Part shown: one piece after another, positions 4,048-60,345 of the stretch
Layout of the letters: every line of letters starts with the position of its first letter
Numbering within the stretch: the stretch's first letter is position 1
Assembly (NCBI GenBank): GCA_044892505.1
Contig: CM097882.1
Location: 292,144,001-292,208,000 of the forward strand
Length of the DNA stretch: 64,000 bases
Direction: 5' to 3'
Origin: Schmidtea nova
Taxonomy: Eukaryota
The notes under the pieces: generated by a model
Told to the model about the DNA's origin: nothing
Databases searched by the model: none
The model's input: only the letters and a program-made list of their open reading frames with translations
Translations under genes and position numbers: made by a program

Positions 4048-4713
4048 AGAGACTGCTCGTCATCTCTGCCCGTCATCTCTGCACGCGAGTTCTTGAGCAT
4101 TGCCGACCAAAAGGATTGACTAATATTAGTGATCATTTTAGGAAATGTGTCAGTAAAAAAATAGGTATCTCTGATTTTAAAATTATTTCAAAGGGTTTAA
4201 GTAATTATTGGGAACGAGTAACTTGTGAGGCATTGTTGATTAGATATTTTAATCCAAAAATAAATGATCAAGTTGCCCGTTCCACTGATATTTTGAATGT
4301 GTTTAAGTAACTGAAGGTTGAATGTTGCGAATTATGTTTGTGGTATAATTATGTTTGTTTTTTTTTTGTAAAAATTTTAAATTTTTTTAAATTTTAAAAT
4401 TTGTAAATTTTATGTTGTATTAAAATTTTATTAAATTAAATTTTATTTTTAAAATAATACGTATGTTGTTCTATGTATAAAGTTTGTTTATAATTAAATT
4501 TTAAAAAATTTTTATGTAATAAAATAAAATAAAATTTTTTAAATTAAAATTTTGATATGGTATGGAGATGATTATTATTGATTAATTTGTTTAAATTTAG
4601 CATATTTTCTATTTTATTATTGATTGTCCTGATTGCCGCCTGACGAAGATTGTTATACAATCGAAATATATCGCGTTTATGTTGAATTTACTGAGTTGGC
4701 GTTTTTCTATAAT
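4048..4713 (+). repeat. Inverted pseudo-LTR copy of the PLE 3' end
   Basis: Reverse complement of 2262..2914; encodes the duplicated GIY-YIG tail in ORF 3990..4310; short CGTCATCTCTGC duplication at the junction. Confidence 0.92.
4637..4675 (+). ncRNA. Minimal type I hammerhead ribozyme in inverted pLTR
   Basis: Identical to 2300..2338 in the opposite orientation (core CTGACGA 4640-4646, GAAA 4663-4666). Confidence 0.85.
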
Positions 4714-10889: not shown

Positions 10890-11750
10890 ATCGAGTTTTG
10901 TAGACAATTAAATTTTATCTATACAATATTACAATGAAAACTCAAAAAAGTTATTTTATTTAGGTGAAATATACAAATATACCTACAAAACACGTGTGCG
11001 CAACCATATACACAACATTTTGAATTTTTAATTCAGCCATTATGTAGACAATACAATTCTGTCTATCTATTGTTTCACTAAAAACTCGATCGGGCCGGTT
11101 TATTGACTCGAAAAAGGTGTTTAAAGTTTTGTAGTAGGAGGCTGTGTCCGGTCCAAACCACTACCCCCCATGTGTGTATGTTACGTAATCGATCGAGGAT
11201 TTATGTAATACACCTGATTACGTAATCATTACATAATCAAGCGTGCTTAATAAAACCTGACAATTATGTAATTTTATATATAATTACGTAATTTCATATA
11301 TTTGTTTAAATTGAGTGAATTTTTTTGTTTAAATTATGTGAATGTTTGTTTTATTTAACTGGAATATTGTTTTAATTAGATGAGTTTTTTGTTTTAACTA
11401 TTTAAAAATATGAAATTTTATTTTAAATTTAATAAAAAAAAATATACGAGTTCACACATGGGGGGGACAGACCGGACACTACCTCCTACTACAAAACTTT
11501 AAACACCTTTTTCGAGTCAATAAACCGGCCCAATCGAGTTCTTAGTGAAACAATAGATAGACAGAATTTTATTGTCTACAAAATGGCTTTATTAGAAATC
11601 TGAAAGTTTTCGTATTTTGCGATGCACACGTGTTTTATTTTGAATTTTCAAACTTTTAACAATATAAAGTAACTTTATGTATTTTTCATTGTAATAAAGT
11701 ATAAATAAAATTTAATTTCCTATAAAATGGCTTGATTAGAAAATTAGTTT
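10890..11750. repeat. Large fold-back (inverted repeat) with 276-bp spacer
   Basis: 11043..11176 is nearly the reverse complement of 11453..11580; weaker similarity extends outward into the 144-bp repeat unit. Confidence 0.88.
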
Positions 11751-12440
11751 GTTGGTGTGTTTGTAATGCACACGTGTTTTGTAATTAATTTTACATTTTT
11801 CATGTATATAAAATAACTTTTTTGAGTTTTGCTTGTAATATTATATGTATAAAATTTAAATGTCTACAAAATGGCTTTATTAGAAATCTGAAAGTTGTCG
11901 TATTTTGTAATACACACGTGTTTTGTAATTAATTTTGCATTTTTCGTGTATATAAAATAAGTTTATTGAGTTTTCATTGTAATAAAGTATAAGTAAAATT
12001 TAATTTCCTATAAAATGGCTTGATTAGAAAATTAGTTTGTTGGTGTGTTTGTAATACACACGTGTTTTGTAATTAATTTTGCATTTTTCATGTATATAAA
12101 ATAAATTTATTGACTTTTCATTGTAATAAAGTATACGTAAAATTTAATTTCCTATAAAATGGCTTTATTAGAAAATCTAAAAGTTGTCGTCTTTCGTGTT
12201 ACACACGTGTTTTGTAATTACTTTTGTAAGTTTTAGTTATTTAAAATAACTTTAGTGAGTTTTCATTGTAATTACATATAGATAAATTTTAATTGCCTAC
12301 AAAATAGCTTTATTAAATTTAAGTATATCGATATGTTTGTGATGCACACGTGTTTTGTAATAAAATACTGGGATTTTTTCGACTATTTAGCATAGATTTA
12401 TCGAATATTTATTGTAATCATGTGTAGATATAATTTTATT
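11581..12440 (+). repeat. Tandem repeat, 144-bp unit, about 6 copies, each with a CACGTG palindrome
   Basis: AAATGGCTT-type starts at 11581, 11725, 11869, 12013, 12157 and 12302 (variant). Confidence 0.92.
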
Positions 12441-12919: not shown

Positions 12920-15900
12920 ATGAACATTATAACAAGTTTTATGAACGAAAACCCAAGTGGAAAAGAAAATGGTAAATTTATTTTTTAATTTATTATCATT
13001 TAGTATTAATTTAGGTAATATCAATAATTCAATTGGGAAATCGATGTTAGAAAATGCGGAAGAAAATGGTACTTGATCATTAACTTAGTAAATTATTTAA
13101 TTTTTACTTTAGGTGATGTAAATATGACTGGAAAAACTACCGTACAAGCTGAGATTGTTAATAATGAGAATATTGTGAATAATGGAGTTATACCTGATGT
13201 GGTATTGAATGTTCAATGTAAGTTTTGATTAATTTTAATTATTTGATTAACTTTTAATTAATTTAGTAAATAAATATAGTAAAATATTTGTAAATATATA
13301 ATTTGATAATATTATTATTATTTTTAACATTACTTTACATTCATAGGTTCTTTATACCCAAATTATTGCTTTTCAACTGACCACAACGATAATTGTCGTC
13401 GATCAATGGAGCAATATTATGGACACTCTTATTATAAAATTCGCTATTATATATGTCCCGTATGCCAAACTTCCCAACCCTTTACATATAAAAATTTTTA
13501 CGATGAACATAAGGATCATTTAAATGAATATAGGTCTAAGAAAATAAAATTATTTAAAAGACCAAACTTGACTCAAAACCCTATAAATAATAAAAAGATT
13601 AAATTGAACATAGATATAATCAAGAAATCACAAAGTTTACAAGAAGAGATTAAAGACAAGATTTTATTAGAAGCGATGGATGCGGATGAAGCGGATGAAA
13701 ACAAGATTTTAATTGAAGCGGTGGAAGAGATTGAAGATTTTTGGAACGTTGGATTTTATCAAACTGGAGGAAGTGTTATAGAACCTCTCCCTGTCATTGA
13801 AAGTGATTTAAATGGATCGCATAGGATTTTAAAAATTAACACTAGTGATTTAAATATAAAGCAAATTATTTTTCCACAATCAATAATTAATAAATTAATA
13901 GAAATAATTAACGAACTAGGCTATGTGAAGATACAATTTGGTATCTGTGTTGAATTTGAGAAAGATGGAGAAATTAAAAGAAACAATATTTCCAATAGTG
14001 CAAAACCTCTGACACAGACATTTTTCGAAGAGGGAATTAAAAAATTGAATGAAAAGATAACTTCATTTGCGGAATTAGGTAGCAGTTGGGTACTTAATCG
14101 TATTACTGAAAAAAGTTTTGTTGTAACTAAGATTTCCAATATAAGTAGGTTAGCAGGTAGAAGCATTGTAAAAACTCCTGAAGGATTAAAAGGAAAGAGA
14201 TGTATATTAAACATTGATAATAAGGATAATTTATGTTTTTTATATAGCATTTTAGCTATATTAAAATATGATTCAATATCTAGAAATAGAGAAAGAGTAT
14301 CAAAATATACAAATTTTTTGTCAGAGCTCAAATATGATATATCAGAAATGACCATGAAACTAAATAGTATCAGAAAATTCGAGGCAAAGAATCCAGGATT
14401 GATCATAAATGTACTATGTTATAATAATGAAATTAATGAAGAGCAAGATGATTATATTTTAAAGCATCCTCATTTGGATATTATTCATCGGTCCAAAGTA
14501 ATAGAAGGAAAAACTATAAATTTATTGTTATTAAATGAAGGGGAAAAATATCATTATGTATCTATTATAAATTTAAAACGTTTAATGAATTGTCACCAAA
14601 GCATTTATTGTACTACTAGGATAAGAAGTGAATGGTGCAGTAGATGTTTAAATGGTTTCCAAAATAAATTATCGTTGGAAAAACATGAGATTTTATGCAG
14701 AAAAAATCAACTAGGAACAACATTATACACTTTCCCGGAAAATAAAATGCTAAAATCTACAGATTGGTCAAAAACTGTTACCCCACCATTTGTTATTTAT
14801 GCAGACTTTGAATCAATTTTACCAAAGGATGATGTATATTATCAGAAACACTTGCCTATTTCTGCGGGGCTTTTGTTAATAAATAACTTTGATGGGACAA
14901 AATCTTACCAACAATTCATTGGACTAAAATGTGTAGAAGAGTTTTTGACTGAAATCAATGATATAGGAGAAAAAGTAGTTTTACCTTACTTTATAAATAA
15001 TTCCAAAAAGAAAATGGAATATCTTTCTCCTGCACAAATAAGATCATTTCGTAGTTCTATAATTTGTTATTTGTGTAATAAACCTTTGAAAAATCCGGTT
15101 AAAGATCATGACCATTATACAGGTAAATACTTGGGTGCGGCTTGCGCTAAATGCAATTTTTCTCGGCAAATAAGATTCATTATGCCTGTACAATTTCATA
15201 ATTTACGCGGATATGATTTGCATCATATCCTCAAGTATGATTTAAATAAATTCGATAAATGGAATATAAGTTGTATTCATATTACAAGTGAAAAGTTTTT
15301 GACTTTATATGCAAGAGTCGATAGTTTAACTATTAAATTTATCGATTCTTGCCAATTTGTAAGCTCCAGCTTAAACGATGCTGTAAAGACATTAACAGAT
15401 TCTCCTCTTACTTCATCCAAATTTATAGGGACTATAGTTACTTCCAAAGGCATATTCCCATATAATTTTGCAACTTCTTTAGAGGTTTTACAAAATACAT
15501 ACGAGTTGCCACCGATTTGGGAAGGAGTTAATATCGACGAGTATGAAAAAGCTCAACATATATGGGATGAATTTAATTGTGAAACATTGTTTGATTATAT
15601 GATGTTATACCTGAAATTGGATGTTTTCTTACTTGTCGACTTTTTTCAGCAATTTAGGGCAAAATCCATTGCACATAACCGACTTGAGCCTCTTAATTTC
15701 TTGGGAATTCCAGACATGTCATGGAATTCAGCTTTGATGACTTTGAAATCTCCTATCAAATTGCTTCAAGATATGGAGATGTATAATATTTTCGAAGGGG
15801 GGATCCATGGTGGGTTAACATTTGTTAATAAACACCATGTAGTATCCTCCGACGACACTGAGCTTCTTTATATAGATATAAATAATTTATATGGGTGGGC

Positions 15901-17191
15901 TTTAAGCCAAAAACTACCTTATAAAGAATTTAAATGGGTAACTGATAGGGAAAAATTAAATAAAATAATTTATTACTGTGAATCTGCTGATTTAGAAGTA
16001 TTAACATTTGGATTTACATTAGAAGTCAATTTAGAAATTCCTGATTCGATTCACGACAAGTTGGATGATTTGCCAGTTGCCGCTGAAAAGATGTGTCAAC
16101 CTGGCTCAAAGGTTGAGAAGTTGATGCTTACGCATTATCCCAAGAAGAACTATGTTCTTCATTGGAGACTTCTCAAACTTTTTCTTTCTCTTGGAGTAAA
16201 AATAACTCATGTCCATAGGGCAATTAAATTTAAACAAGCATGTATTTTTAAGGATTACATCGATACCAATACCAGACTTAGAGCAGAATCAAGTAATGCT
16301 CTGGGTAAAAATTATTATAAATTATTAAATAATAGTCTCTACGGTAAAACCGTAGAGAATCTTAAAAAGCGCATAAATTTAAGATTATGTAATTCGGCTT
16401 CTAGGCTGATTACATATACTTCTAAGCCAACTTTTAAAAGGACCTTCGAAATTGACGATGATTTGGTTGCCGTCTTGCTGAATCAGGAATCGGTGTGTTT
16501 GGATAGACCCAGCTACATTGGTCAAACTGTACTGGATCTATCTAAACTTAGAATGTACCAGCTGCAGTATGAAGAGTTACAAAAATATCGTAACGAATTC
16601 AACTGCGAAATCAACATAGTTGCTGGTGACACCGATTCGTTTTTTCTTGAGATTAGAAATTGTAAGCTTGATATTCTTTTACCGGCCAAGATAAGAGATA
16701 ACTTACTTGACACTTCTAATTATGACCCGAATCACCCATTATATAGTAGGAACCTTGATTCTGTCATTGGCAAGTTCAAAGACGAGAATAAAGGACTTAA
16801 AGACGAGGAGTGGGTGTTTCTTAGACCTAAATGTTATAGTCTTTTAGGTGACGAGGAAACTAATAAAGCTAAGGGGGCAACATTAGCGGGTACTGACATA
16901 AAGCATCAGTCGTACCTGGACTGTTTTAATAATAACCAAATATTTTCTGTTCCCCAAACGAGAATCACAAGTAAAAATCACCAACTTTTTACTATTAAAA
17001 ATGAAAAGACTGCACTGACAAACGCAGATGATAAAAGGAAATGGGTGGCGAAAAATAAAAGCTTGGCATATGGCCATTATATTGGAGGTGACTTGGTTAT
17101 ATTTCAACATACCAATCCAAGAATCAATCCATATCACCAATTCCAAGATCAAACTGAAGAAGAAACAGTTTTATTAAATAAAATTTGTTGA
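12920..17191 (+). CDS. pPolB: Polinton protein-primed DNA polymerase B, copy 1; predicted 4 exons (12920-12971, 13015-13068, 13113-13217, 13347-17191)
   Basis: Exo motifs YADFES, FHNLRGYD and YLKLDV; pol motifs YIDINNLYG, KLLNNSLYGK and GDTDS; endonuclease-VII-like CxxC...DHDH...CxxC insert. Three GT-AG phase-1 introns join an upstream ATG in frame. Confidence 0.93.
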
Positions 17192-17339: not shown

Positions 17340-18373
17340 TAAATAAGAGAACACCATTTTTTAAAATATATTAATGCAATATATTTCGACAGCTTAGCTG
17401 TCATCATCAGGCTTTTCACAATCTCAATAAAATAAAAATTGATCTTAATTATACGCTTAATAGTGATTACATAATTACGTGTGCATAATCCAATAAAACT
17501 TTTATTTACCCTAATAAAATTAATTAAACACTCTCAAAATGCATGTAGATATTGCATTTTGTATATTTATTTTAGGATTAAATGATTTTATCATCAAAGC
17601 CTCACAATTCACACGTTCATAATAATTTTTAAATCCACTAGAAAGTATTTTGAAATTAGAAATATCAATGCTCTTCTTGCAAGTCTTATAATGCTCAATA
17701 ATGTTACTCTTTCCGCTCTTTCTGGCATGTTCTTGAACTCGTGTACAGAGATGACGGGCAGTCTCTCCAATGTATGTGGCATTATACCCATTACAAGTAA
17801 AACGATATACGAGATCAGAACACAGACCAAATGGCGTCACAGATTTATTACTGAACATGTCACGAACTTTGCAAGACTTAGAAATTATTTTAACATTAGT
17901 ATTTCCAATATATTTTATAATAGATTTTTTAAAATTTACAAATTTTTATTTAATAGTTTATTTAGATTAGATTGTACTTCAGTTCCAATATTCAAGAGAT
18001 ATTTAAAACTTTACAAATCTGTGAGGAAAAAAGAATTAGATATTTCATTTTTAGAAACGTGTTTGGAAGATCATATGATACCAGCATTTATTTTTAAAAT
18101 GAAATTGAATGATTGCCTACTCGATGATGACGTTCGAATGATTCATCGACGAACTTTAAGGAGAATTTTGGAATTGGAGAAAAGGCGAAGAAATTATCTT
18201 GTTAAGCAACTTTCAGTAGTATGATTGGTCTTGTACGAGGTGATTGGTGATTTTCATTTTTACATGTGCATTAAATCCGTAATTTTAAACTCACAACGTT
18301 GTTTAAGATCAAAAATTGATTGTCAAAATAAAAAAATAAAAAATTTGAGAAAATTGTTTGGTGCACCAAAATG
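17340..18373. mobile_element. Second Penelope-like element: inverted 3' pLTR (minus strand, ~17340-17880) followed by the 5' part of the ORF (plus strand, ~17880-18373)
   Basis: 17520..17858(-) is a GIY-YIG tail homologous to 2665..3040. The plus-strand frame ...ISFLETCLEDHMIPAF...KKIKNL resembles the PLE N-terminal domain. Confidence 0.8.
17376..17412 (-). ncRNA. Minimal type I hammerhead ribozyme
   Basis: gc-CUGAUGA-U-GACAGC(uaa)GCUGUC-GAAA-UAUA-UU-gc. Confidence 0.8.
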
Positions 18374-18374
18374 T

Positions 18375-19004
18375 CAATTAGTTGATGCAAAATTAATGAT
18401 TCGTCGAGTTCGTGTTGAATCATCGGTATTAGCTGGACATCAAATTGGACTAAATTCAAAACATGCAATTTATCCAATGAAAAACAAGGAAATTGTAACT
18501 TTTGCTATAGGCAAAGGGGCTTCATCATTTTACAAAGAACAAATATTTGGAGATAGAAGAATGCCTAATTTTATTCTTGTAGCTTTCCAAAGTGAAACTC
18601 AATACAATGGATCATATAATGCTTCAAGTTCAAAATTCAAACATTTTAATGTAACTTCTCTATCTCTATCGAAAAACACTGATTATCGGGAAACATATAC
18701 TCAAGATTTTGAAAACGATAATTATTGTACTACATACATGCAGTCTATTGTGAGAAATATGGGTTATTTGGATAAAAATTTGAATTGTGGTATAAGTCTT
18801 GCTGATTTTAAAGCAAAATATCCATTCTTTACTTTTGTTTTGGCTCCTGATTTTGATTTAAATCAAAGTCAATTACCTCAAAATGGAAATTTGAGATTGG
18901 ATATAAAGTTTGCAAAAGCAATTGAAGAACCGGTACACGTAATAATATATGGAGTTTTTGAAAATGAAATTCAAATTACGTCTAATCGAACAATACTGGT
19001 TTGA
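18375..19004 (+). pseudogene. Polinton major capsid protein (hexon-like), C-terminal half only
   Basis: LVDAKLMIRRVRV...IYPM...EQIFG..MPNFILVAF...FKHFNV...FVLAPD...GNLRLDIKFAKAIEEPVHVIIYGVFENEIQI matches my recollection of the Polinton MCP C-terminus. The N-half is replaced by PLE sequence. Confidence 0.85.
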
Positions 19005-19059: not shown

Positions 19060-19443
19060 ATGGAGTAAGTCTTTAATATTTTCAAATAAATTAATTTATT
19101 TAGTTCAATTCAGGTAAATCGAATTGGAAAACAATTATTGGGTACTGAATTTATTGGAGTGTATCCATTAGATAAAATCCCGTACTTGGATGACAATCAA
19201 GCTATTATCATCAATACACAGTCATCATCTTTGGGTGGGGAACATTGGATTGCTGTATATGTGAAACCAAACAAGATTCATGTATTCGATCCATTTGGAT
19301 GTTATTATCCAGGTTTATTAGTTAGTAAACTACAAACAATAGGTAAACCGATTGTATATAATAAAATTAGATATCAACATCCACTGACAATTACTTGTGG
19401 TCAACATTGTCTTGCATGTCTAAACTCAATGTTATATCTATAA
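19060..19443 (+). CDS. Adenain-like cysteine protease (Polinton PRO); predicted 39-bp intron 19065-19103
   Basis: GEHW, FDPFG and Q-x6-CG catalytic motifs. ATGGA|GTAAGT...TTTAG|T gives MDSIQVNRIGKQLLGTEFIGVYPLD. TATAAAT at 19028. Confidence 0.88.
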
Positions 19444-19460: not shown

Positions 19461-19895
19461 ATGTTCTTTATAAAAATGACTTGTTATTTTATTGATATTT
19501 ATGGTTATAATGATAATGCAGGTGGATTAATTATTAAGGAATTGTGTATTATGAATGTAAATAATATTTTACGCCCAAAGTATTGGATATATAATGATTT
19601 ACCATTTTGGGCAGGAGTTGAATTTCCTGATCGATTGGAATGGTATGAAGGAGAAGATTATTTTTGTTCAACGTGTATTTTGAATGATATTGAAGATACA
19701 AGTGAAATTTTCTATGTCAGTGATCATGATAAACTTATTATTTTGAAAAAATATTTCCCGAATTTGAGACTAATTAAATATACATTAAAAGAAGCTCAAG
19801 AAGTTCCTGACAATATTTCATGCCCATATCGTGATCATTCTCATTGTGCTTATAAGAATTGTTTGGTTAATGCATTAGATTATTTAAAATGTTAA
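19461..19895 (+). CDS. Small Polinton-associated protein with DEDD-exonuclease-like start and Cys/His tail
   Basis: FIDIYGYNDNAGGLIIKEL motif and CPYRDHSHCAYKNC tail; lies between the protease and pPolB. Confidence 0.55.
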   Translation: MFFIKMTCYFIDIYGYNDNAGGLIIKELCIMNVNNILRPKYWIYNDLPFWAGVEFPDRLEWYEGEDYFCSTCILNDIEDTSEIFYVSDHDKLIILKKYFPNLRLIKYTLKEAQEVPDNISCPYRDHSHCAYKNCLVNALDYLKC

Positions 19896-20328
19896 ATAAA
19901 TATATTTAAATTGTTAAATAAATATATTTAAATTGTAAAATAATGTAATTATCTGAAATAAATGTATTAAATGTTATATTTTTGCAATTCAAATGCAATG
20001 CATATGCAATTCATATCCATGTATTACTCATAGGTTCATTAAAAAGGTCATAATAATAATACACACAGGCATAGGTCATGTTAACACACTTATGCATACA
20101 TACATAATAAATATATAAGCAAACATGCATGTATACACATTACACATACAAACACATTAGTATATCTTGTATAAACATGCATACCATATATATATATATA
20201 TTTTCCTATCCTAAATCGCTTTTCATTGGATGATTATAAATATTGAAAATTATAGTTATATATATACAATATCTTTTACTTTTTATTTCACTTTTACAAT
20301 CTAAATTTCAAACTATATTCAACACAAC

Positions 20329-23300
20329 ATGTTCAACACAATCAATAATATTAAATCAAAGGTTTTTACCAATATGGGTAAATTATTTATTTTATTTTAT
20401 TTATTATTTTAATTTTTATGATTTAGCAGCTTCGGCATCGGCTTTTTCTAATTATCGAGTCAGAAGAAATGTTGTTTTGGGTATTAACGGTAATTTATTA
20501 GTTATATTATTTATAAAATTATTAAAATATTTTAGAGATTAGATCAATTAATGCGGAGCAGATAAGAAACAATGAATCTATTACTACTTGTGATAATACA
20601 ATTAATGATATATCATCTCAAAATATGGTGGCCGAAAATATGACAGTTTACGATATGCCAGCGACGAATATGCTAAGCGGGAATGCCGATATAATAGGCA
20701 ATTTGATGATATTCAATGACAACTGTAAGTAGTATTTTTATTATTTGGTAATTTTATGATTTTAAATATTAATAAATTGTAAATGATTTTTCATTTTTAA
20801 TTAAGAAATTATTATAAAATTTTATACTATATAATAAATTATCATAAAATGTTACAAGTTTATTTTTATAACAAGTATTTTTAATAATAATTAATTTTTT
20901 AATATATATTCAGGCTCATTGTATCCTAATTATTGTGTTTCATCAATGGCACATAATAATCAATGCCATGATCTTATGGCGAAATATTTTCATCATAAGT
21001 TTAATGGCATTGACTTTTTTATATGTCCGAAATGTGAAACATCCCACGCCCAAACCTATTCCGACTTTTATAATGATCATAAAGTTCATCTTTCCCAATT
21101 CTTTAAAAATAAAAAATCCATCTTTAAAAATTCAAATATTATAAATAATATAAATACCATAAATACTAGAAATACTAGAAATACTAGAAATACAAATAAT
21201 ATAAATACTAATAAATACAAAAGACCTGCTGATATTAAAATCAATTACGCGTCAAAGAAAATTAAAAAAGATCTTATTATTATTAGTGATGATGAGGATG
21301 TTGAAATTCAACAACCCATAATTTTAAATAATGAAATTTTAAATAATAATCAAATAGGGGGATCTATTGATTTAGATAGTTCTATCAACATTGATGATGA
21401 ACCTGTTATTGAAACAGATTTAAAAGGAGCTCGTCGAGCATTAACATTTAATATAATTAAATTTAATATTAATAGTATAGTGTTAACAGATAGAATTACT
21501 ACCAGATTAGAAAAAGAAATTAATAAAATGGGGAGTGTTAAAATTCAGTTTGCCGTAAATATAGAGTTTGAGAAAGATGGGGTTTATAAAAATGAATTTT
21601 TATCAAATAGTGCTGAAGTGTTTTCCAATACTTTTTTAATAGAGGGTATTCGGAAATTAAATAAAAAAATTGAAAATTTTACACAAATGGGTAGCGGCTG
21701 GCATGTAAATAAAATTAGGGAAATCCATTTCATTTTAACTAAATATTCATCAATTAATAGATTAACTGAACATGGACACTTTAAAACTCCAAAAGAATTA
21801 AAGGGGAAACGTGCCATTATAAATGTAAACAATTCAGACGATTTATGTTTTATATATAGTATTTTGGCTATATTAAAGCGTAATGAAATAAATAATAATC
21901 AAAATGTAATATCAAGTTACACACAATTCTTAGATGAAATTAATTTTGACCCAATAGATGATTGCCCTATGAAACTCTGTAACATTCCTAAATTTGAAAG
22001 AAATAATCCAGGCTTAGCAATTAACGTATTATCGTATAATCCCACAAATGTTCCTAATGAGGATGATGAATATAATGAAGAATACGTATCTCATCATCCT
22101 CATTTAGATATTATTCATAGAACAAAATTAACCGAATTTACCCCAATTTATTTATTATTATTAGAAAATAATAGGAATTTCCATTATACTGCAGTAATTA
22201 ATTTGCAAAAATTAATGAATTGTCATAAAAATAATATAATAGATGTTAGGATAAGGTGCAATTGGTGCCCAAGGTGTCTCAATGGTTTCCGTCTCCAGGA
22301 AGCCTTTGATCGACATATTGAATTATGTAATAAAAATCAAGTGGGGACAACTTTGTATACCCTTCCCAAAAATAAAAATTTAGAATTTGGTGATTACTCG
22401 AAAACAGTAACACCACCTTTTGTAATTTACGGGGACTTTGAATCAATTTTACCAATTGATGTCCAATACCATCAAAAACATTTACCCATATCAGCAGGAC
22501 TATTATTAGTAAATAATTTTAATAATTCTAATTCATATTTTAATTTTATTGGACCTGACTGCATTTTCGAATTTTTGAAAAAGGTTGAGGAAATTGCTGA
22601 CACAATAGTACTCCCATATTATGAACTACATGGTAAGACTCCAATAAATACTTTATCTTTTGACGAGGAACGGTCTTTTAAAACTTGTTCACACTGCTAT
22701 CTTTGTAAAAAACCTATAAGGAATCGCGTAAGAGACCATGATCACTTTTCTGGTAAATATCTTGGTGCTGCGTGTAAGATTTGTAACGTTTCAAGAAGAA
22801 TTAGAAAACACTTACCGGTTATATTTCATAACTTGAGGGGCTATGACTTACATCACATTTTGAAGTATGGTCTTAGCAGTTTTCCATCTTGGGAATTAAA
22901 TATTATTCCAACAACAACGGAAAAATCTATTTCCTTAATAGCACATATAAATAAACTTGCTGTTCGTTTTATCGACAGTTATCAATTTATAACTGCATCT
23001 TTATCAAATGCAGTTAAAACCATTTCTTCATTACCTTTAACTGCTTCTGCTTTTAGTGGTGCAATCATGGATTGTAAGGGTATTTTTCCTTTCAATTTCG
23101 CGACAAGTTTAGAAATTTTGGAATCGACTTTTGAACTACCACCTATCTGGCCTGAAGTATCTGAGGCGGAGTATATAAAAGCACAACAAATCTGGCGTGA
23201 TAATAGTTGTAATACCTTACTTGACTATATGTTAATCTACTTAAAATTAGACGTATTTCTCCTTGCAGACTTTTTTCAACAGTTTCGTGCAAAGTCCATT

Positions 23301-24836
23301 GCTCACAATGGCTTAGATCCTTTAAATTTTTACGGAATTCCCGGTATGTCATGGGCTTCATCACTTATGACATTAAAGGAACCTATTGAACTTTTACAGG
23401 ACATGGAAATGTATAATTTCTATGAAGGTGGAATACGAGGTGGATTAACATTCGTCAATAAGCACCACGTTGTCACTGACGATAACACAGAGTTGCTGTA
23501 TATAGATATTAATAATCTATATGGTTGGGCTCTTAGCCAAAGTCTTCCTTTTGGTGATTTTAGTTGGATTATTAATGATTTGGATTCTATCTTGACTGAA
23601 TGCATGTCTACGGATATTGAAATCCTTCCATATGGTTACACATTGGAAGTTGATATCGATGTTCCGGAAAGCGTGCATGTGTTTTTGGATGATTTTCCTG
23701 TTGCTCCTGAAAAAATGTGCCCACCTTGCTCAAAAGTTGAGAAGTTGATGCTTACACATCACCCAAAGAAGAACTATGTTCTTCATTGGCGACTTCTCAA
23801 AATGTTTCTTTCTCTTGGTGTAAAAGTTGTTAAGATTCATAGGGCTATAAAGTTTAAACAGGCTAAAATCTTTAAAGAGTATATAGATACAAATACTGAG
23901 TTGAGGGCTAATTCAAATAATGATCTTGATAGAAATTACTTTAAGTTGCTTAATAACAACCTATATGGTAAATCTGTTGAAAATCTGAAAAAACGAATGA
24001 ATTTGCGACTATGTAATTCATCTGAAAAGATGATTATATATTCATCAAAACCGTCTTTCAGAAAGTGCATCAAAATTGATGACAATCTGATTGCAGCTCA
24101 TCTGAATAAAGATTTGATTTGTTTAGATAGACCTAGTTATATCGGTCAAACGGTTCTAGATCTATCTAAACTACGGATGTATCAACTTCAATATCTTGAA
24201 TTACGAAAATATAGGGAACTTTTTAATTGTAAGATTGACATTGTTGCTGGCGACACTGACTCTTTCTTTCTTGAAATTAAAAATTGTAAGTTAAGTACTC
24301 TTTTACCGGCTATGATATCTGATTGTCTTCTGGATACTTCAAACTATGATCCTAACCATCCCTTATATTCAAGAAACCTTGATTCTGTAATAGGAAAATT
24401 TAAAGATGAAAGTAAGGGTCTTGGATATAAGGAATGGGTTTTCTTGCGTCCAAAATGTTATAGTCTTTTAGGTGATGATGAAAGCAATAAAGCCAAAGGG
24501 ATTACATTGCCTGGAACTGGTATAAATCATCAATCTTATATTGATTGTTATAAAAATAATCGCGTTTTTAATGTACCTCAAACACTAATAGGGACTAAAA
24601 ATCATCAATTGTTTACTTTTAAAAATTATAAAACAGCATTAAGTAACAACGATGACAAACGTCAATGGGTGGGGAAAAATAAAAGTTTCGCTTTCGGACA
24701 TTATTTAGGAGTCAATGTCATTATTGATGAAATAGATGATGATCCTAATGATGATGATCCTGATAATAATCCAGATGAAAATCCAGATGAAAATCCGAAT
24801 AATGATCCAGATGAGTTACAATCAGACGAATTTTAG
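20329..24836 (+). CDS. pPolB: Polinton protein-primed DNA polymerase B, copy 2; predicted 4 exons (20329-20377, 20427-20489, 20536-20724, 20914-24836)
   Basis: Same motif set (YGDFES, FHNLRGYD, YIDINNLYG, KLLNNNLYGK, GDTDS); three phase-1 GT-AG introns; acidic D/N/P-rich tail. Confidence 0.93.

Positions 24837-24951: not shown

Positions 24952-25010
<59 letters not shown>
24952..25010. repeat. (ATT)n microsatellite
   Basis: Direct reading. Confidence 0.95.
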
Positions 25011-25013
<3 letters not shown>

Positions 25014-26760
25014 GACCTAGTTAATTTAAATATTTCTTTTAGCGTATATGACCTTACTTCATTTGTCTTTAAATATATGACCTACTTTAAATATCTACTT
25101 TTTCATATAAAAAGTACCTAATTTGACTTTAAATAAAAAATATTTTTCATATATTAAGTACTTAAATAAAAATATTTTCATATATAACCTACTTTATTTA
25201 AATATATGACCTACTTTATTTGTCCTTAAATTGTCCTTAAATTATAATATTTTAATTTCTCATATATAACCTACTTTATTTGACTTTAAATTGTCCTTAA
25301 ATTAAATTATATTAATTTTTCATATATGACCTACTTTATTTCTCATATATGACCTACTTTATTTTGTCTTAAATAAAAATATTTCATATATGACCTACTT
25401 CATTTCTCATATATGACCTACTTTATTTTGTCTTAAATAAAAATATTTCATATATGACCTACTTAATTTTAAATTAAATAATAATGTCTTCATATATGAC
25501 CTACTTAATTTAAATAAAAATATTTTCATATATGACCTACTTATTTTGACTTTAATAATATTTAATTTTCATATAAAAAGTACCTAATTTGACTTTAAAT
25601 TAAATATTTAAATATATGACCTACTTAATTTCATATATGACCTACTTTATTTGTCCTTAAATTGTCCTTAAATTATAATATTTTAATTTCTCATATATGA
25701 CCTACTTAATTTCTCATATATGACCTACTTTATTTAACCTTAAATTGTCCTTAAATTATATTAATTTAATTTTTCATATATGACCTACTTAATTTCTCAT
25801 ATATGACCTACTTTATTTTGTCTTAAATAAAAATATTTCATATATGACCTACTTAATTTTAAATTAAATAATAATGTCTTCATATATGACCTACTTAATT
25901 TAAATAAAAATATTTTCATATATGACCTACTTTATTTGATAATAAATATTTAATTTTTCATATATGACCTACTTAATTTAAAAATATTTCATATATGACC
26001 TACATAATTTAATTTAAATAATATCTAATTTTCATATAAAAAGTACCTAATTTGACTTTAAATTAAATATTTAAATATATGACCTACTTAATTTCATATA
26101 TGACCTACTTAATAAAAAAATTTTTCATATATGACCTACTTAATTTAATTTAAATAATATCTAATTTTCATACAAAAGTACCTAGTTTTAGTTTAAATTC
26201 AATATTTAAATATATGACCTACTTAATTTAATTTAAATAATATCTAATTTTAGCTTAAATTCAATATTTAAATATATGACCTACTTAATTTCATATGACC
26301 TACTTAATTTCATATATGACCTACTTAATTTAATTTAAATAATATATAATTTTAGCTTAAATTCAATATTTAAATATATGACCTACTTAATTTCATATAT
26401 GACCTACTTAATTTAATTTAAATAATATCTAATTTTCGTATAAAAAGTACCTAATTTTACTTTAAATTAAATATTTAAATATATGACCTACTTTATTTGA
26501 CCTTAAATTGTGCTTAAATATATGACCTACTTTATTTGACCTTAAATTCACCTTAAATAATGACCCTAAAGTGTCCTTAAATCGACCTAGATCTACTTTT
26601 TTGTCCTTAAAGTGCCCTAAAACCATAAATTTGACCTTAAACTCACCTAAAAGTGCCCTTAAAGTGTCCTAAAATCAAAAATTTGACCTTAAATTCACCT
26701 TAAGCGAAAAATTTGACCTTAAAGTGACCTTAAAATGACCTACTTAAAATTTGACCTACA
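25011..26760. repeat. Subterminal array: about 30 ATATGACCTACTT motifs grading into TTGACCTTAAA motifs
   Basis: Counted by eye; AT-rich spacers are themselves reiterated, with a higher-order copy about 400 bp apart (25395-25520 vs 25795-25920). Confidence 0.92.
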
Positions 26761-26769
26761 TAAAAAAAA

Positions 26770-26820
26770 TTTTCCCTGGGGGGGGTTGACCTATATATGA
26801 CGGGGACACATCCTACTACT
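26770..26820 (-). other. Polinton right terminus (5'-AGTAGTAGGATGTGTCC on the minus strand)
   Basis: Ends CACATCCTACTACT; AGT-repeat termini are typical of Polintons; related to the mini-element termini at 56788 and 58980. Confidence 0.8.
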
Positions 26821-27549
26821 AATGCTATCTTAAATTTCTACTCATAATCTCCTATTTCCACTATTTTCATTGTTTTTAATCTTTCGCTTGTGTTACTTTT
26901 TTCCTTTCAGTTTTTGTTTTCAATTGGATAATTTTCAACATATTTCAGTTATTGGCTTTCTATTCCCATTCATATAACCAGATTTATTTCACCATTGTAC
27001 TGTCATTTTTCTTCTTCATCGATTATCACACATTTCAATATTATCGTAAATTGACTTTTCATTACCACCATTGCAAGTAATTGCTCCATCATTGTGTTCA
27101 GTATATTTTCATTTCCATTTGTATTCACCAGTGCTAGATTAAACATTTAGGGAGCCCTGTGCGGCTGTGCCAAAAAATATCTGGTCCCCCTTTTGATGAA
27201 CCGGAAATCACACCAAGGTATTCTGATTTTTTGTGTGGTTGCCGATTCATCAATTTTATTTTTATTTCCCCGCTTTTAATTTTATGTAATCTTACAAATA
27301 AATTTAATAATACTTCGTTGTGTTCCGGTGGCCTAAGTTTGTGTTGCTTGGCAACTGCATTTGTGTACGGGGAATTGAAACTGTGAATTGAACTCTCATT
27401 TTGAATTTGAACTACCGGACTATATTTGGAAATATTTATTTTTAAAATACACAGAACGTTGTATTTATTTGGCTCCAGGGAACGTACGTCGTAAGAGATT
27501 TTATCAATATTATAGTTGCCTGTCACTTTAATGTCATTGTTTATTAATT

Positions 27550-31250: not shown

Positions 31251-32879
31251 ATTTACTGTTGCCAAGAAACTACCAAACAATGAAACAACAATAAAATTAA
31301 CCGAGAACATGAGAAAAAGAAAGAGTTACATTATAAACTTGTTTTTATGGGTTCCTTTTTTTATGAAATCCTTCAGATTTTAATAAAATCTCGTCTTCTT
31401 CGGAAGCTACGCTTAACCTTTGAGAATCTGAACAAAGCACGTCAGTTTCTATGATGTTCATATCCTATTCCGACTGATAGTTAACAGTGTTCGTTGTAAA
31501 TCCCAATTTAAACAAATTCATGTTCTGACTGTTAACTAATTCTTTTTCTTTCTTTTCAACTTTTCGCTTACGTTTGAGTGCTACACTTAGATAAAGACGT
31601 TTGTCGGACATTATTTATTTCCGATTGATCGTTAAATATTTTTAAATATCTTTTTTATTATTAATCTGATTTATTTATTTAATTAATATTTTCTCTTGCT
31701 AACGACAACTGGTGATGCTGTCATGACGTATTTATTTTTTAAATAAACAATCACATACGGAGTCGGATAAGGGGAAATCGGAAATAAAAGTTTTATTTTT
31801 ACTTTTTTTACATTTTCGGGGCCGAGCTCCTGGGGCTCCATAAAATGTCGGGGCCCTGTGCCAAGGCAAAATTGACACAATGGATAATCCGGCCAAGGTA
31901 TTCACTATTTTTTCAGTATATTATTATTTTCACCCCTTTCGTGTTGATTGATCACTAGTATTTTAATTTATTCAGTGCCTCATTTTTACTTTAATAAATA
32001 TATTTTAATCGCTATCCACTCACAATAAATCTTTATTTAGCATTATTTTAATTTCATATTTTATCTTTTTCCTTTTTTTTATCGCATATTGTCACTCAAA
32101 TATCAATCATTTATATTGTTCATACTGGTCATTATTATTACAACTTATTTGTTCTACATTTATAAACATTTATATTAAAAGTTTGATAAATCTATCACTC
32201 ATTATGTTAAATACCGCAATCATGTTTGTCACTTTTCCTCAGTATTTTTGACTACCTGATTTAGCAATAGTACTAAATTGGTTGATTATCCTTAATCCCC
32301 ACTGAATTATTACAGTATTCGACTATGCAAATTACTTTGTCATATACCAACCACATTCAAATTATCATGTAACTGATACCGATTCTATAGTTAAAATTTA
32401 ACAAGTACATAAAATCGATCAATCTATTACAACAATTTCTTTAGAAATAGTATTAGTATTAACATTTATAGTTTTTTCCATAAATCTTTTACCTGAATAT
32501 TACCAATTGTTCTACTAAAATCATATTTTCACTCTATCATATTCCAACTTTCACTTTATTACCCAAGCTTGTCCACATTTCACCTGAAACAATCAATTAT
32601 TTTGTATTCGCTTTCGTACTTACCAAACCCATTCATATTTTTCAACATTTCAATAATTATTCTCACTGTCATTATTTTGAAGGTATTTTATAATTCTAGT
32701 ATCAATACCAACATCATATTGGTCCTTTTCCAGCATGAAACTCAATTACACTAACACATGACAGTTTACATATGAAAACTAGTATACATTGTACTCAAAG
32801 CACTTTCACGCTGATCAAAAAAAAACAAAATGCAAGCTGTTAACAATGATTCGATATACCCATTCACCCAAGACATTCG

Positions 32880-33035
32880 CAGTGACTCGTTTTCATCAAA
32901 TGACAACAATTATCAGTTCTACTCTAGTGGAGATTGTGTAGTCGATATTCAAAGAAGAAACAATTGCCAGTTCCGTAGATTGCAGAAATGTTCCGCTACT
33001 GGAATGCGTAAAGAAGCTGTACAAACTGGAAGATG
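32880..33035 (+). pseudogene. Nuclear-receptor DNA-binding domain fragment (second zinc finger, NR2-like), two Cys lost
   Basis: SGDCVVDIQRRNNCQFRRLQKCSATGMRKEAVQTGR; no first finger or ligand-binding domain visible. Confidence 0.75.
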
Positions 33036-33779
33036 CTTGTCAACAACTGGATCAATATTAATATACTATCCAGACAAATCTGAAATGACTAACTCAAAAA
33101 ATCTACAAATCAATACATTGGATCACAATCAATCTCGATTAAAGGATTATTCTCCAGCGCCAGAAATCAATCAATACGGACTGTCATGGAGCTTGCTCAT
33201 TTCAACTCTTGTTATCATCGGTCAAGATTTCCGGTTGCGAAAAACCGACTTATCAATTAGCAATCAATTTCTATTAATAAAATCTAATTTGCTTTTAGTA
33301 TTCCTATACATTGATTCATAAGTTTTTTTCTTAAAACTTTTGACAAATAAAATATTTGATAAATGACACCAAACTATTTAACGATTTCAACTCAATAATG
33401 ACAAGACTATATCATGATTCTACATGCAAAATATCAATCACAATTTCCACAAATTAATACCAAAATATTATTAAAAATAGTTAAAATCTCATCATGCCTC
33501 TGAATAAAAATTACTGAAAATGACGAATTTTATACCAAAATATACTTAAATTTAAGTAGACTGACAGTGTTTTTAAATAGAGAATACTGAAAATTAATCA
33601 AAATTTCCTAAATTATACCTACAAATAATCAAATTTCTAAGTATAGACTGACAATTTAAATAGAAAATATTGAGATCGACCATCAATAGAGATAGAAATG
33701 TCGGATGAATCATGTCCAATCAAACAACTAAGTTCAAATCGTTTTATTTTTATAAATTTCCATCATTGTCTTTCACAGA

Positions 33780-34560
33780 GTATGAATTCATAATTATTTT
33801 CCATCGTTATTTTAAAAACGTACCAGAACCCAAGTAGCAGTATCTTGGTAGAAGAACATTTTTTTGTGATGGTTTTGGGTGTCAAAGCTTCGTGTTCAAA
33901 CAAGTTGATTTGAAACTTATGTACTTTTGACTTAAAGCCCATCCATACAGATTGTTGATATCAATATACAAAAAAACTGTATCAGCATTTGATTTAACAT
34001 AGTGCTAATTAACAAATGTTAAGTATCCAGCTCTCAATAAGTTGTAGATTTCCATATCCCGGATAAGTTTGACAAGTTTATTCAGAATCATCAATACCGA
34101 ATCCCACGACATACCGGGAATACTCAAGAAATTTAAGGGTTACAATAAATTTTGTGCGATGAATTTAGATCCAAATTGCTGGAAAAAATCAGCACACAAT
34201 AACACGTCTAATTTTAAGTGGACCATCATGTAATCCAAAAGTGAATTACAGTTGGTCTCTCTCCAAATTACTAGAACAATAGCTTATTCCACTTCAATTA
34301 CGTCCTTCCAAATAAGAGGTAATTCAGTTATTGCTATAAGAACATGGGAATATCCCCTTTGTCCACCTAAATTCAGCTGAAGTCAATGGTAAAGATGTTA
34401 AGGTTTTTACAATTCGCTGATTGACCCTGACTATAACATAAATACTTTAATGGTCTGTTATCTCGATTAACTGGTTGACAATATCTACTGTCGAACAGTC
34501 CATGCTCATGCAGTTATACTCTTGCGCATTCTTAAAAATCAACAAATGCGGATCTTGTAG
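33780..34560 (-). pseudogene. Degenerate Polinton pPolB fragment (exoIII to pol motif A)
   Basis: LLDYMMVHLKLDVLLCADFFQQF, PLNFLSIPGMSW, DMEIYN and FLYIDINNLYGWALSQ with stops and deletions. Confidence 0.88.
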
Positions 34561-35078
34561 CATTGACTGTATAGGCCTACTATAATATGAAAAGATTAGC
34601 TAAAAACTTTCATTATAAAATTGCGTTATATAATAGATAAAGCTCCGTAAAAAACCCGCAGGATCTCTCAATAATGATTTCAAGTCAAATAAAACAATTA
34701 TTTTCATTTTTTCAGAAAATCGATAAATTTGTTTCCTAATCAACACTTTTGTGAACGGCCATGTTTTAAATGTTATTTAAAAATTGCAATGATAGTATTT
34801 GTGTCGAGTCAGAAAAATATTGTTTTGATACATTGTCTGAACAAAATGAAAATAAACAAAATATGTGCCATATGATAAGGTTATGCTTGGCGATCTAACA
34901 GCATTTCTACATTAAGGTAAAAAACTGTAATTTCTTGATTATTTCAAAATAAAAAAATAAATTTATTTTAAACAAATAAATTATCATAGGCTAAACTGTA
35001 CAAGGCTCCTGTCGTGATTGGTTTGTTTTAATCAAATATATTTTGTAAAATTAGATAAAATTTATCATTCAAACAAAA

Positions 35079-35830
35079 ATGAAATTGCAGATTTTAATAA
35101 TTTATGCTTATCAAGTATTTTGCCAAGCACAAAATTGTAAGGATCCCTTTAAGACATACGATTCAATTTGCGTTTACACATCCGAAATAGAATTGTCATA
35201 CTGCAATTCATGGGAGAAATGCTACCAAGACGGGGGGCGACTCGTAATAGAAGCAGATATCCCTATAATAAACAAATTCTCTATTCTAAACAAGTCCATA
35301 CATTATTATATTAGCTTAAATGATTTGGTAACTGAAAGACAGAGCAACAAAAGCGGCTGGGTGTTCAGTGATGGACAAGAGATACAAAATATTGCTCTAT
35401 GGTCACCGAACCAACCCGATGTCAATAATAATCATCAGGATTGCGTAACAATAAAATATGGGAAACTTTTTAATTGTAAATGTACACTGGCAAAACTCTT
35501 TATATGCGTAATGGAATCAAGAAACGAAATCAAATCCAGGAAATTGCTAATGGAAACCGAAGAAATATTTAATGACGATTCTTTTTACGAATGCTTTGAC
35601 TTTCTGAAAGTTGACAACAAATACGACTGCATAATAAAGTAATTGCCTTTTTTAATAATAAATAATCTATGAAATGTTGTTCTTATTCTAGAAGCCTTGA
35701 CAAATTATATTACAAATCAGTCTTCTTCAATAGCGCCACGAACCAGTGCATCGTGACCAAGTATGTCCACAGCCTTTTACCACTTTCCATGAAGAAAGCA
35801 CGAGAGAATGATATCTTACGTTTTTATTAA
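35079..35830 (+). CDS. Secreted C-type lectin domain protein with short Cys-containing (PAN-like) tail; 2 exons (35079-35638, 35692-35830)
   Basis: Signal-peptide-like start, CTLD cysteines, YISL and WSPNQPD motifs; a 53-bp GT-AG phase-2 intron restores the frame to TAA at 35830. Confidence 0.8.
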
Positions 35831-36842: not shown

Positions 36843-39773
36843 ATGCTTATTAAAGAAAAACTTTAGAAAATTGATATTCCTGGATTTAAATATTACTTTT
36901 ATAGGAATTTTAACTTATGTGTTGCTCTAAATATTGTAAATAATTCTGCAACTAAATATACTAATAAAATAGTTAAAACTAAAGATAATAAACTTGAAAT
37001 AAATACAAAGAAAATATCTCTTATTGATCATAATATCATCAGCATTTTCCCTACTTGTTCAGTTTACATCCCTGCTTCTCTCTCAATTAAAAAATTCCTT
37101 TTTAATTTGTCAGCGGATTTATCTGAAACCGTCTCAATCAAAGACGAAAAATATAGAGGGATTAAAATTAATAAAATAATAAACACATTAGCGAAAAGCC
37201 AGCAACTCCCTAATTACTTGATAAAATCAAAACTGAAATACGAGAATGGCGATTTCGTTTTGTTGGATCTTACAAATCCAAATATTTTGACAACTGATAA
37301 TATCTCTAATCTGACATTGAACGCAATAGAACTTTCAAGAACTCAAATTGTCAAACTGTATTCCGATTTTCCATCCATCAAGGAAGCTTGTTTTGTTGAG
37401 CACTTATCTACAAAATTTTCTTCGATTGCTAAAATGGTTAATGACCTTAAAGTTAATAACAATTTTCCCGAGCACATCTTTTATAGAGAAGGAAAATTTT
37501 ATCAATCTGTTGACAATAAAAATGAAATAAATTCTGCGCCTGACATCATGTTTAATCTTGGTCTTTTTGATCTTGTTGACATGTCAGAAACTGACACAGA
37601 TTTGAAATCTCTTTTAGTAAAAGAAAACTGTCATTTTAAAACTGTTGACATTGTATTCTATCTCAATTACTTGGGATTAACAGGGTCTCTGAAATTTGTT
37701 CAAAATCAAACATATGCTGATTATATAAGAAATTATATAAAGAATTGTAGTCTGATAACTTCTATTTGTTCTTTAAAAGATATTTCTTTGCTTTCCAATG
37801 ATGATTTTGATGTTTGGGGGGCAGAAATTGTCGAAAAGATCCCAAAATCGTCATATTATTTCGTAAGTTGTAAGGAAAAGCTCCTTAAGCTGAAGCAGTG
37901 GTTGATATCTGGTGAAATTAATAAAATTCACAATTTAATATCTCCACAAACGATATCGATTCTTAACATCTTTCTGGACACTATTGACGCAAAACACCCA
38001 AATACATTAGATCACTCTAAAATAATAAATAAATTAATGCAAGTCCTTAACGATATCAAGTTATTGGATGATGTACATGGACTAAAATCAAAGCGGTTAA
38101 TCTACTTTATGCTGAGGGATCTTAAGAGATTTCGAATTAAAAATAAAAAGTATCGACTCTTCGAAAACTGCAAGAAACATTGCACGGCAGAAATGGCTAA
38201 AACAATCTCGAATATTATCAAAGAACTGACACTAACAATCAATAATGATAATAATGAATTGCAAAAATCAAAATCTAAAGATTACATCGTTGATCCTGTT
38301 GAAATCATCAATACTCAAGAAATTACTTTGATAAATGAGGAAATCAAATGTATTAAATGTGGAAATATAATTGAAAATTGTATGCTGTTAAAAGAAGGAA
38401 TAAACACGAATGTTTGTGGACCTTGCATAATAGACGCCATTTCCTCTATAAAATCCAACATTGACAGCGAAGCCCAATTGTGTGAAAATTCCACCGATTC
38501 ACTTATAAAGAAAAATGCTTCAAAATCCAAAACAACATATTTGAGGAAGCAAACTCCGAATAATAAATGAGGATGTGTGCCTGCATCAGCTCAAGCTTCT
38601 GTCTTTCCTTCTATTGAGACTGATGCAGAGAGCACAATAATCTTAAATAACGCTTGTACAAATAATCGTGATCCGAAAATGTGGTTTTCTGACGATGATA
38701 TAGATTTTTATCTTGAAAATCACATTGAAAATCCAATGCATGGATACATGAAATGCTATATTGTAAACATTCTCTGCTCAAACATTCGAGAACAGATTGT
38801 TCCAATTCCAGCATCCCTCGATAGAGCTGAAATTATATTCTGTCCAATAAATATCAGCAATTCACACTGGATTCTCTATGTATATTGTAAAAATTCTCTA
38901 TCTTCTTATTTTATCGATCCAATATTCAATATTCGCCAGAAGTTGATTAATAAACAAATGGCTGGGAAAGTTAACATTGCACTAAATGTGCATTTCAACT
39001 TAAAAATTAAGATATCATCCAATCCCCACAAGTACTTGAAATATCAAGACAACAACTTCGATTGTGGTCCTTTCACTTGCGCTTATGCAGTGATTATTAG
39101 CAGAGAATGGAACTATTTTCCAGATGGGTTCATAGAAGAAATAAGAGAATATGTTCATCAATATCAAAATCAGATGATTCCAAAACTATGTGGGGGTGCT
39201 AATCTACCAATGGATGTCAGAGCAATAAATATCCAAAAAGCTCTTGCTAAAAGAAAAGCAATAGTGAAGTCCAATAAAGTTGCCAAAATTTTAATGTCTG
39301 AGAATCCATGTATATCATCCATAATTAAAAAATACTATGAAAATAATCTTCAGGTACTTGTTTTGACAGCGGAATTAACAAATAACCTTATTGCGCAAAA
39401 TGATAACTTTATAGCTGAAAACGTGACTTTTAAACAATTTAAAGGAATTGAGCACGTCATTAGCGTCATTCCTAAATTCAATAACTGGTGTCTCTATGTT
39501 TACTCTACTAAATTAAATAAAAGCTATATTTTTGATTTTAATTCTCGAAATATAGATGAGAGGCTAAGGGAAATTGGCGGAAAAATTACTGACTACCTAA
39601 ATAATTTCTTTCTTAACCGAAGGATTGAATTTAAAGCTAATCACAATATTTCACATACATCTTTTCACTCTGAAGACAATCAGTTTTTTGCATCTATGTT
39701 AACGAATTATCCGTATTCAATAATTTTTACTCAATTTTTTTCAATAGTTCCAAACAAAAGAAATAATATATAA
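36843..39773 (+). pseudogene. About 976-codon cargo ORF with C-terminal Ulp1/C48-type protease, interrupted only by TAG (36864) and TGA (38568)
   Basis: ORFs 37107..38570 and 38577..39773 share one frame that stays open back to 36867, with an ATG at 36843. Protease motifs WFSDDDIDFY, PINISNSHW, YFIDP and QDNNFDCG. Confidence 0.8.
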
Positions 39774-59400: not shown

Positions 59401-59899
59401 AAACATACTTGACATTACATTTTTGTAAATTAAATGATTAATCCAGATATAAAGTCATTGTTTAGTAATTGCCAAACTGGTTAGAAATTATCATATTTTG
59501 TTGGTAAACAGTATGGATCAGGTTGGCTATAAACTATTAGAAGAATTTCACTTTCAATTCTTAAGCAAATAGGTAGGTTTGGATTGAAAACTGCTAAAGA
59601 TGTGATCGTAAATGATCAGAAAATAGTGCCATAATTGAAAACAATTCTTTGTCTGAAATTATTAAAAAGTGATTTTCAAATGAATGTTTCTCGTTTATAT
59701 ACATTATTATTACATAATACACAATACACCAATGAAACCATGGACAGACACATGCGCACACAAACTAGATTACCGCAACGTAAAATAAAAAAAAATTTAA
59801 TTAAAAATGAAAAAACTTCAATCTAAAAATAATAAAAGATTTCAATACAAGAATTTATTAATTAAACATTTATTAATCACTTTATTAATAACTTCCTTT

Positions 59900-60345
59900 C
59901 GATAAAGTTAATGATTTGACATTAAAGTTATCGTAAATAGAATAAGTATCGGTAAATAAACCACCATGTATTTTATTTCCTTGAAATGCAACAAGAATAA
60001 AGTTTGGTAATCGTCTATCACCAAAGATTTGTTCTTAATAAAATGACGAAGAATCCATTGGTAATCAAAATTCAACAACTTCCTTATTTCTTATTAGATA
60101 AATTGCATTTCTTGTATCAAGTCAAATTCGATGTCCAGCGAAAACCAATGGTTCAACTCTTAATCTTAACCATTAATTTTACCTCGAATAATTTAATTAT
60201 AGGTTCAACGTTTGTGCATGTTAAAATATTGGCCGTGTTTGATCTCGTCAATTTAATTTGAACACTAACACCTGGTAATAAATAATTTAGTTGTTCCATA
60301 AAATCTAAATGTAATGGAGAACAAATTGCGAACAGCCTTGATTTT
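59900..60345 (-). pseudogene. Polinton major capsid remnant
   Basis: PLHLDFMEQLNYLLPGVSVQIKLTRS and EQIFGDRRLPNFILVAFQ, homologous to 18375..19004. Confidence 0.85.

Follow-up and report, generated by a model that had tools for sequence, protein, structure and literature searches.

Inward-facing subterminal motifs that are kept in non-autonomous copies are a feature of CACTA, hAT and Foldback-type transposons. The element end described here resembles theirs in having repeated, inward-facing motifs that are retained in a non-autonomous copy; their repeats bind the element's own transposase, however, whereas Polintons work with an rve integrase and replicate by protein priming. Terminal inverted repeats (TIRs) in Polinton/Maverick elements (adintoviruses) are described in the accessible text of PMC8097293 by a 6-bp end motif, most commonly (AGT)2, and by lengths of 46–1447 bp, with no internal receptor-site arrays; in the literature accessible to us, a role is assigned to these 6-bp motifs only. 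At the adenovirus left end, packaging A-repeats lie beside the left ITR, overlap in role with the E1A enhancer and are bound by COUP-TF and Oct-1, COUP-TF binding being without a role in packaging (PMC5033970). The HIV-1 LTR carries a RORE (RGGTCA) through which RORC and REV-ERB act (PMC10391662), and RORE motifs in mouse RSINE1 circadian enhancers are bound by nuclear receptors (PMC8240256).

ROR elements in mobile DNA are hence already known. We found no report of receptor-site arrays in Polintons in the accessible sections of the literature searched, which included PMC8097293, PMC10748475, PMC11414722, PMC11296320, PMC8363768 and PMC8502044. The accessible part of PMC11414722 gives only putative factor sites near Polinton-derived repeats, and the accessible part of its supplement contains 0 TAGGTCA and at least 18 TGACCTA words, two of which were inspected and are the same non-terminal site. 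A motif search of the accessible supplement to PMC10748475, which may contain no end sequences, gave 0 matches, and matches in that to PMC8097293 were confined to the end-motif table.

The Polinton end in the window, the 64-kb stretch of DNA analyzed here, shares with the adenovirus left end redundant short repeats of 21-bp spacing beside a protein-primed terminus, but it has 34 exact ROR-type sites where adenovirus has seven degenerate repeats. The HIV-1 LTR offers a single retroviral site with demonstrated binding, whereas this is a dense array in a DNA element, known from sequence. Its sites are already exact and multiplied, unlike those of RSINE1: these are for the most part imperfect proto-motifs, which mature once the element has inserted and which serve the host. 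In agreement with described Polinton/Maverick TIRs, we observed the (AGT)2 end motif, adjacent polymerase B and protease genes with part of a probable capsid gene and, in a mini-element, the 6-bp target duplication; the 1.8-kb array would exceed the published TIR range if all of it were TIR, the left end being missing here.

The element terminus lies at 26798–26820 on the minus strand and starts AGTAGTAG. About 175 nt separate the array from the end of an open gene for a protein-primed DNA polymerase B (20895–24836, plus strand, 1313 codons stop to stop), the best homologue of which is 64% identical over residues 450–1250 and matches Pfam PF03175 and PF02945; the window polymerase itself matches PF02945 alone, and weakly. 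Upstream on the same strand lie two AGGTCA half-sites that are not ROR-type (20043–20078), a 144-aa ORF of no known family with unnamed eukaryotic clusters as look-alikes (19461–19895), an adenovirus-type maturation protease (19090–19443; PF00770, E 2.6e-5) and part of a gene for a probable major capsid protein, namely its C-terminal half (18369–19004). The capsid fragment has no direct Pfam match and reaches 57% to a 449-aa ORF in a related locus (L029), which in turn shows a weak link to double-jelly-roll capsids. An earlier note on this DNA had called the feature a Polinton end, and the polymerase, the protease and the (AGT)2 tip bear this out. The capsid gene is broken on its 5' side, and the window copy is without its left part, that side being where a second polymerase gene lies together with a GIY-YIG fragment. 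No left end matching 26820 was found in the 64-kb window, and the ORFs of relatives, distant queries that included the integrase and ATPase of L237, detected no integrase or packaging ATPase in it.

The window holds further remnants. The second polymerase B gene (13328–17191) is open, about 52–59% identical to the first, preceded by CCAAT-like words and followed by the GIY-YIG fragment (17520–17945). Decayed Polinton polymerase or capsid fragments lie at 1757–2256, 33909–34343, 59464–59643 and 59891–60362. A perfect 648-nt inverted repeat (2262–2909 and 4066–4713) surrounds part of a reverse-transcriptase ORF and could be an assembly artefact. At 36867–39773, a 567-aa ORF of no known family is followed in read-through by an Ulp1-type protease ORF. 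At 32878–33018, 6 kb from the array, a nuclear receptor's second zinc finger stands alone and has lost cysteines; no first finger was seen in 31900–35100, and a protein search gave no homologue. The finger, probably a decayed fragment that supports no subfamily assignment, shows that the host is an animal.

From the tip, the array extends inward to a (TAT)20 microsatellite (24952–25011). Between 25012 and 26820, the minus strand contains 42 AGGTCA hexamers and the plus strand none; allowing up to one mismatch, the counts are 66 and 0. Thirty-four of the 42 hexamers match WAWNTRGGTCA, the published monomeric ROR element (PMC5553892), spanning 25013–26797 with 32 wholly within 25011–26760, and the motif has no match elsewhere in the 64-kb window. 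The exact 10-mer core is present in 31 copies on one strand (25078–26736) and absent from the opposite strand. The earlier note's description of about 30 perfect ROR/Rev-erb-type copies in a single orientation was thus accurate, and a scan against shuffled controls agreed with it: 1000 dinucleotide shuffles of the array region gave on average 0.12 and at most two ROR-type sites. As a tandem array multiplies one word, this test is evidence of repetition, not of selection.

The array (18% G+C) interleaves two classes of co-oriented units. Class I, the ROR-type unit, consists of an A/T-rich 5' extension, AGGTCA and a TATAT flank, with a base period near 21 bp. The repeated unit thereby exceeds the receptor site, the TATAT 3' of the hexamer being kept in 34 to 41 of the 42 copies, depending on the position. 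Class II is a ladder of half-sites with a TTTA 5' flank every 11 bp, readable as TNA-extended half-sites or as DR5 pairs; its hexamer variants across the array comprise nine AGGACA, five AAGTCA, three AGGTGA and two AGGGCA. The inner array (25012–26533, minus strand) combines ROR-type units of about 21-bp period with 11-bp-spaced half-site pairs and six slots with a replaced core, while the terminal ladder (26498–26797, minus strand) is made of AGGTCA, AGGACA, AGGTGA and AGGGCA half-sites, the three nearest the tip being ROR-type. This ladder, with its AGG(T/A)CA half-sites and 5-nt gaps, forms a second layer absent from the earlier note. A DR5 dimer element is a direct repeat of two half-sites 5 nt apart. 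Of the 20 gaps between half-sites in the terminal 341 nt (26480–26820), 10 measure 5 nt and four 13 nt, a DR5-like arrangement that may simply reflect the 11-bp tandem unit.

The ladder also contains six copies (26498–26733) of TNAAGGTCA, the published ERR element, all with T at the N position, where C is preferred in the consensus (PMC5476932); five more copies, likewise with T, are found in the mini-element ends, where the earlier note had placed them. A switch of the core to TTAAGGTCA toward the terminus held insofar as a zone with this form exists; because the three tip-nearest half-sites (26736, 26752 and 26787) are ROR-type again, it is a zone and no gradient to the tip. Likewise, the proposed NR5A/ERR type stood for the ERR element, whereas NR5A sites were rejected, as the NR5A consensus YCAAGGYCR has 0 matches in the array.

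Nested duplications with periods of 21, 41, 60, 83 and 454 run through the array, as expected if one ancestral near-tip word had been multiplied by slippage and unequal exchange into a neutral minisatellite and the array were inert. In the same line, a 21-bp unit describes the spacing of the cores (R 0.69) more closely than does the helical repeat (R 0.52). Helical phasing had been entertained as a sign of cooperative binding and was dropped, since the 21-bp unit accounts for it. Replaced cores were amplified, too: six core slots after the usual flank hold other words, five of them copies of one word that recurs in the mini-element (56788–58980), which makes them amplified dead cores or a second motif. 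Moreover, conservation of the TATAT flank, which lies beyond the receptor site, equals that of the core (substitutions in 2 of 76 columns). Comparing core with spacers in four paired duplicated blocks, one pair of which aligned poorly, we counted substitutions in 3 of 132 versus 24 of 379 columns (p=0.11), so that the conservation check proposed by the earlier note returned a difference that is not significant. Seven near-copies of the core contain nine changes, five of them at the two positions that the consensus tolerates; the sample is small and non-independent and gives a weak hint at a receptor site. What speaks against inertness is that the spacers have become near-pure A/T by decay, yet 42 hexamers are exact.

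The array is not confined to the window copy. Four of four public runs, which stem from one study and may be where the window comes from, each have 45 to 73 contigs that exit the reference exactly at 26820 into unrelated flanks, and contigs run on inward through additional array-like units that are arranged differently. As many contigs diverge at the terminus and continue into such units, terminus and array are features of a family. The variation in arrangement among copies, with its joints and loose ends, again suits an inert minisatellite. Copies differ mainly by AGGACA versus AAGTCA at ladder positions (16 differences listed for the end), and among the differences listed is one place where most contigs have a half-site that the window copy lacks. 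High contig depth at 27180–27280 marks another repeat family just beyond the Polinton end.

A non-autonomous element of 2193 bp (56788–58980), with AGTAGG ends and the 6-bp target duplication TTTATC, carries a left ladder of eight half-sites (56930–57025, plus strand; gaps of 5 nt in four of seven cases and 7 nt in three) and a right ladder of four (58771–58829, minus strand). Its left end aligns with the main Polinton end in the half-site ladder alone. The hexamer is kept in two repeat classes and in a second element whose ends are otherwise different, which, like the exact hexamers amid decayed spacers, counts against a neutral minisatellite, an origin that we consider unlikely. What the mini-element shares with the two classes of repeat is AGG(T/A)CA rather than AGTAGG, which weakens the earlier suggestion of a core descended from the AGTAGG motif at the terminus.

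Retention of the ladder at both ends of a non-autonomous element is, at the same time, expected of a signal needed in trans, and the strictly inward orientation (66 to 0) fits such a signal as well. The units could accordingly be recognized by a protein that the element itself encodes, be it the polymerase through its terminal-protein part, the integrase or a factor for packaging, with an incidental receptor match. Adenovirus packaging repeats, redundant and with 21-bp spacing, are bound by IVa2 and L4-22K (PMC5033970). The N-terminus of the window polymerase shows a CxxC...HxxH pattern. To our knowledge, however, no element protein has a specificity for these units, and the Polinton-type ends at 11133 and 11490 share the tip motif without having AGGTCA. 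In a related locus described below, moreover, the sites lie upstream of a gene and no terminus is in view. We judge binding by an element protein to be rather improbable.

Structural DNA was considered as well. Helically phased A/T tracts might bend or open the end for replication or exclude nucleosomes, the G/C of the hexamer merely punctuating the tracts. The low G+C content of the array is compatible with this, as is AA/TT periodicity, which peaks at 10–10.5 bp in the ladder and at 11.5–12 bp in the mini-element ladder. But the periodicity of the inner array is only weak, and bending requires no exact hexamer, of which there are 42 copies; a purely structural role seems very unlikely.

Beyond this genome, we compared 122 related polymerase loci (13 viral, 75 metagenomic and 34 from genome bins). 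Most of them lack termini, and the viral and metagenomic loci of at least 8 kb yielded no long terminal inverted repeat. One locus, L037, has a polymerase with 39% identity over residues 134–664, placed in a sister clade by a quick, unfinished tree. Its positions 183–350 hold three ROR-type sites and one TCAAGGTCA, at most 170 nt upstream of and facing the polymerase gene. The sites represent both core variants of the window array, with different flanks and no TATAT; two of the three ROR-type sites are one duplication. Among 5000 shuffles, two such sites appeared in one and three in none. Of the first 88 loci, L037 gave the best match to the terminal 340 nt of the window element (17 of 17 bases, E 0.009); no terminus is visible in it. 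Two sites adjoin a CCAAT box, the extended form of which recurs in the mini-element ends and in L022. Because the same sites lie beside CCAAT boxes upstream of a polymerase, L037 favors their being real host-factor sites; the same word in such a promoter-like setting is also at odds with a neutral minisatellite.

Among close relatives with at least 240 nt upstream, ROR-type sites occur in only one of eight, and none of the seven with downstream DNA has an array there, none reaching a terminus. In a hexamer permutation across the 122 polymerase loci, the true word ranked first of 60 for clustering; three of the 60 words reached two clustered loci, and three gave a triple. Weighing L037, the one-in-eight relatives and the permutations together, we regard the cross-element evidence for a receptor word as suggestive, near the 5% level. 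Upstream of the first gene in the distant L237 lies a 19-bp triple repeat containing two ROR-type sites. This 14,973-bp contig, binned in a bacterial MAG, is adintovirus-like and apparently near-complete, with integrase-chromodomain, ATPase, capsid, PLA2-like and polymerase genes. L152, another candidate, looked similar at a G-run, but was rejected as a phage-like contig without a Polinton gene.

In a control scan of viral contigs, at least 120 loci have three close TGACCTA words, and 11 of the 120 listed contain at least three ROR-type sites, up to 19 in a contig where they form a simple tandem repeat; some loci are giant-virus records by name. The polymerase profile was found in none of the 120 listed, 40 of which have short flanks only, and in none of 18 viral loci from a stricter TGACCTA scan. 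Viral contigs scanned with the polymerase alone and with the capsid fragment alone likewise yielded no relative. As ROR-type arrays thus occur in viral contigs without a Polinton, a consensus match alone proves nothing, and such ROR-like tandem repeats in unrelated contigs count toward a neutral minisatellite.

At other Polinton-type ends, different words that resemble host-factor sites are clustered. The mini-element ends contain words that are CRE-like (0 of 300 shuffles) and AP-1- and CCAAT-like (11 and 20 of 300). At 11133 and 11490, two Polinton-type tips face each other within a larger inverted repeat, and a direct target duplication is absent. Six TTAYRTAA words of PAR-bZIP/E4BP4-like type (0 of 300 shuffles) occur in the intervening 358 nt, which contain no AGGTCA. 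A 144-bp tandem repeat at 11565–12361 has six CACGTG words. E-box-, D-box- and RORE-like words are therefore all present in repeats of the window, a joint presence that may be coincidence. In a distant Polinton-like locus (L081, 1–250), a mirror-symmetric region with two TATA-like boxes lies upstream of the polymerase, as do four words that we read as the octamer motif (0 of 300 shuffles). Two close relatives (L015, 1–480; L019, 1–200) have GCGGGAAA and GTGGGAA words, which are E2F- and CSL-like, upstream of the polymerase.

Taken together, we favor, with a probability of roughly 45%, the reading that the array is a host nuclear-receptor module that slippage has amplified and that serves as enhancer or auxiliary origin; the enhancer or origin proposed by the earlier note is to this extent partly supported. 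Class I units would be bound by a monomeric NR1-type host receptor, ROR/HR3 acting as activator and Rev-erb/E75 as repressor, and the class II ladder by ERR-like monomers or DR5 dimers. Once bound, the array might enhance expression of the element's genes or provide an auxiliary origin beside the protein-primed core origin at the tip. Function would probably be carried by a few near-tip sites, and the 1.5-kb inner array may only raise the dose. Both unit classes occur at many of this genome's element ends and have expanded by local duplication.

Several observations argue for the receptor module: 34 sites match the published ROR element and six the published ERR element; mini-element and main end align only in the ladder; L037 shares the site types, and the true hexamer came first of 60; five of nine core changes fall on tolerated positions, and other Polinton ends carry host-factor-like clusters; and the HIV-1 LTR provides a RORE precedent (PMC10391662). 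It is opposed by the core-to-spacer p value of 0.11, the equally conserved TATAT flank and the six replaced slots; by the scarcity among relatives, one of eight with sites and none of seven with an array; by the single duplication behind two of the three L037 sites and the three of 60 words that reach two clustered loci; by the 11 of 120 listed viral contigs with at least three ROR-type sites; and by adenovirus, where COUP-TF binding is irrelevant to packaging (PMC5033970).

A broader proposal, which the sequence comparisons make possible but leave doubtful, is that tandem host-factor arrays at ends and promoters let animal Polintons set the timing of their activity by host physiology, with a word per lineage. 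If so, the family in the window would use ROR/Rev-erb sites, tied to the moulting cycle or the clock, at a density far above the single site of the HIV LTR, while other Polinton-type DNA would use PAR-bZIP-like or octamer words. An endogenous virus would have the array as its reactivation switch, and the ends, dispersed in their hundreds, would be receptor-binding platforms in the host genome, many of them ready-made host enhancers or receptor sinks. Should the array not bind, it would be a clear case of a repeat mimicking a regulatory consensus. If it does bind host receptors, it names the signal, and likely the time and tissue, of Polinton activity, and the switch-on of animal Polintons would become testable with short DNA fragments.
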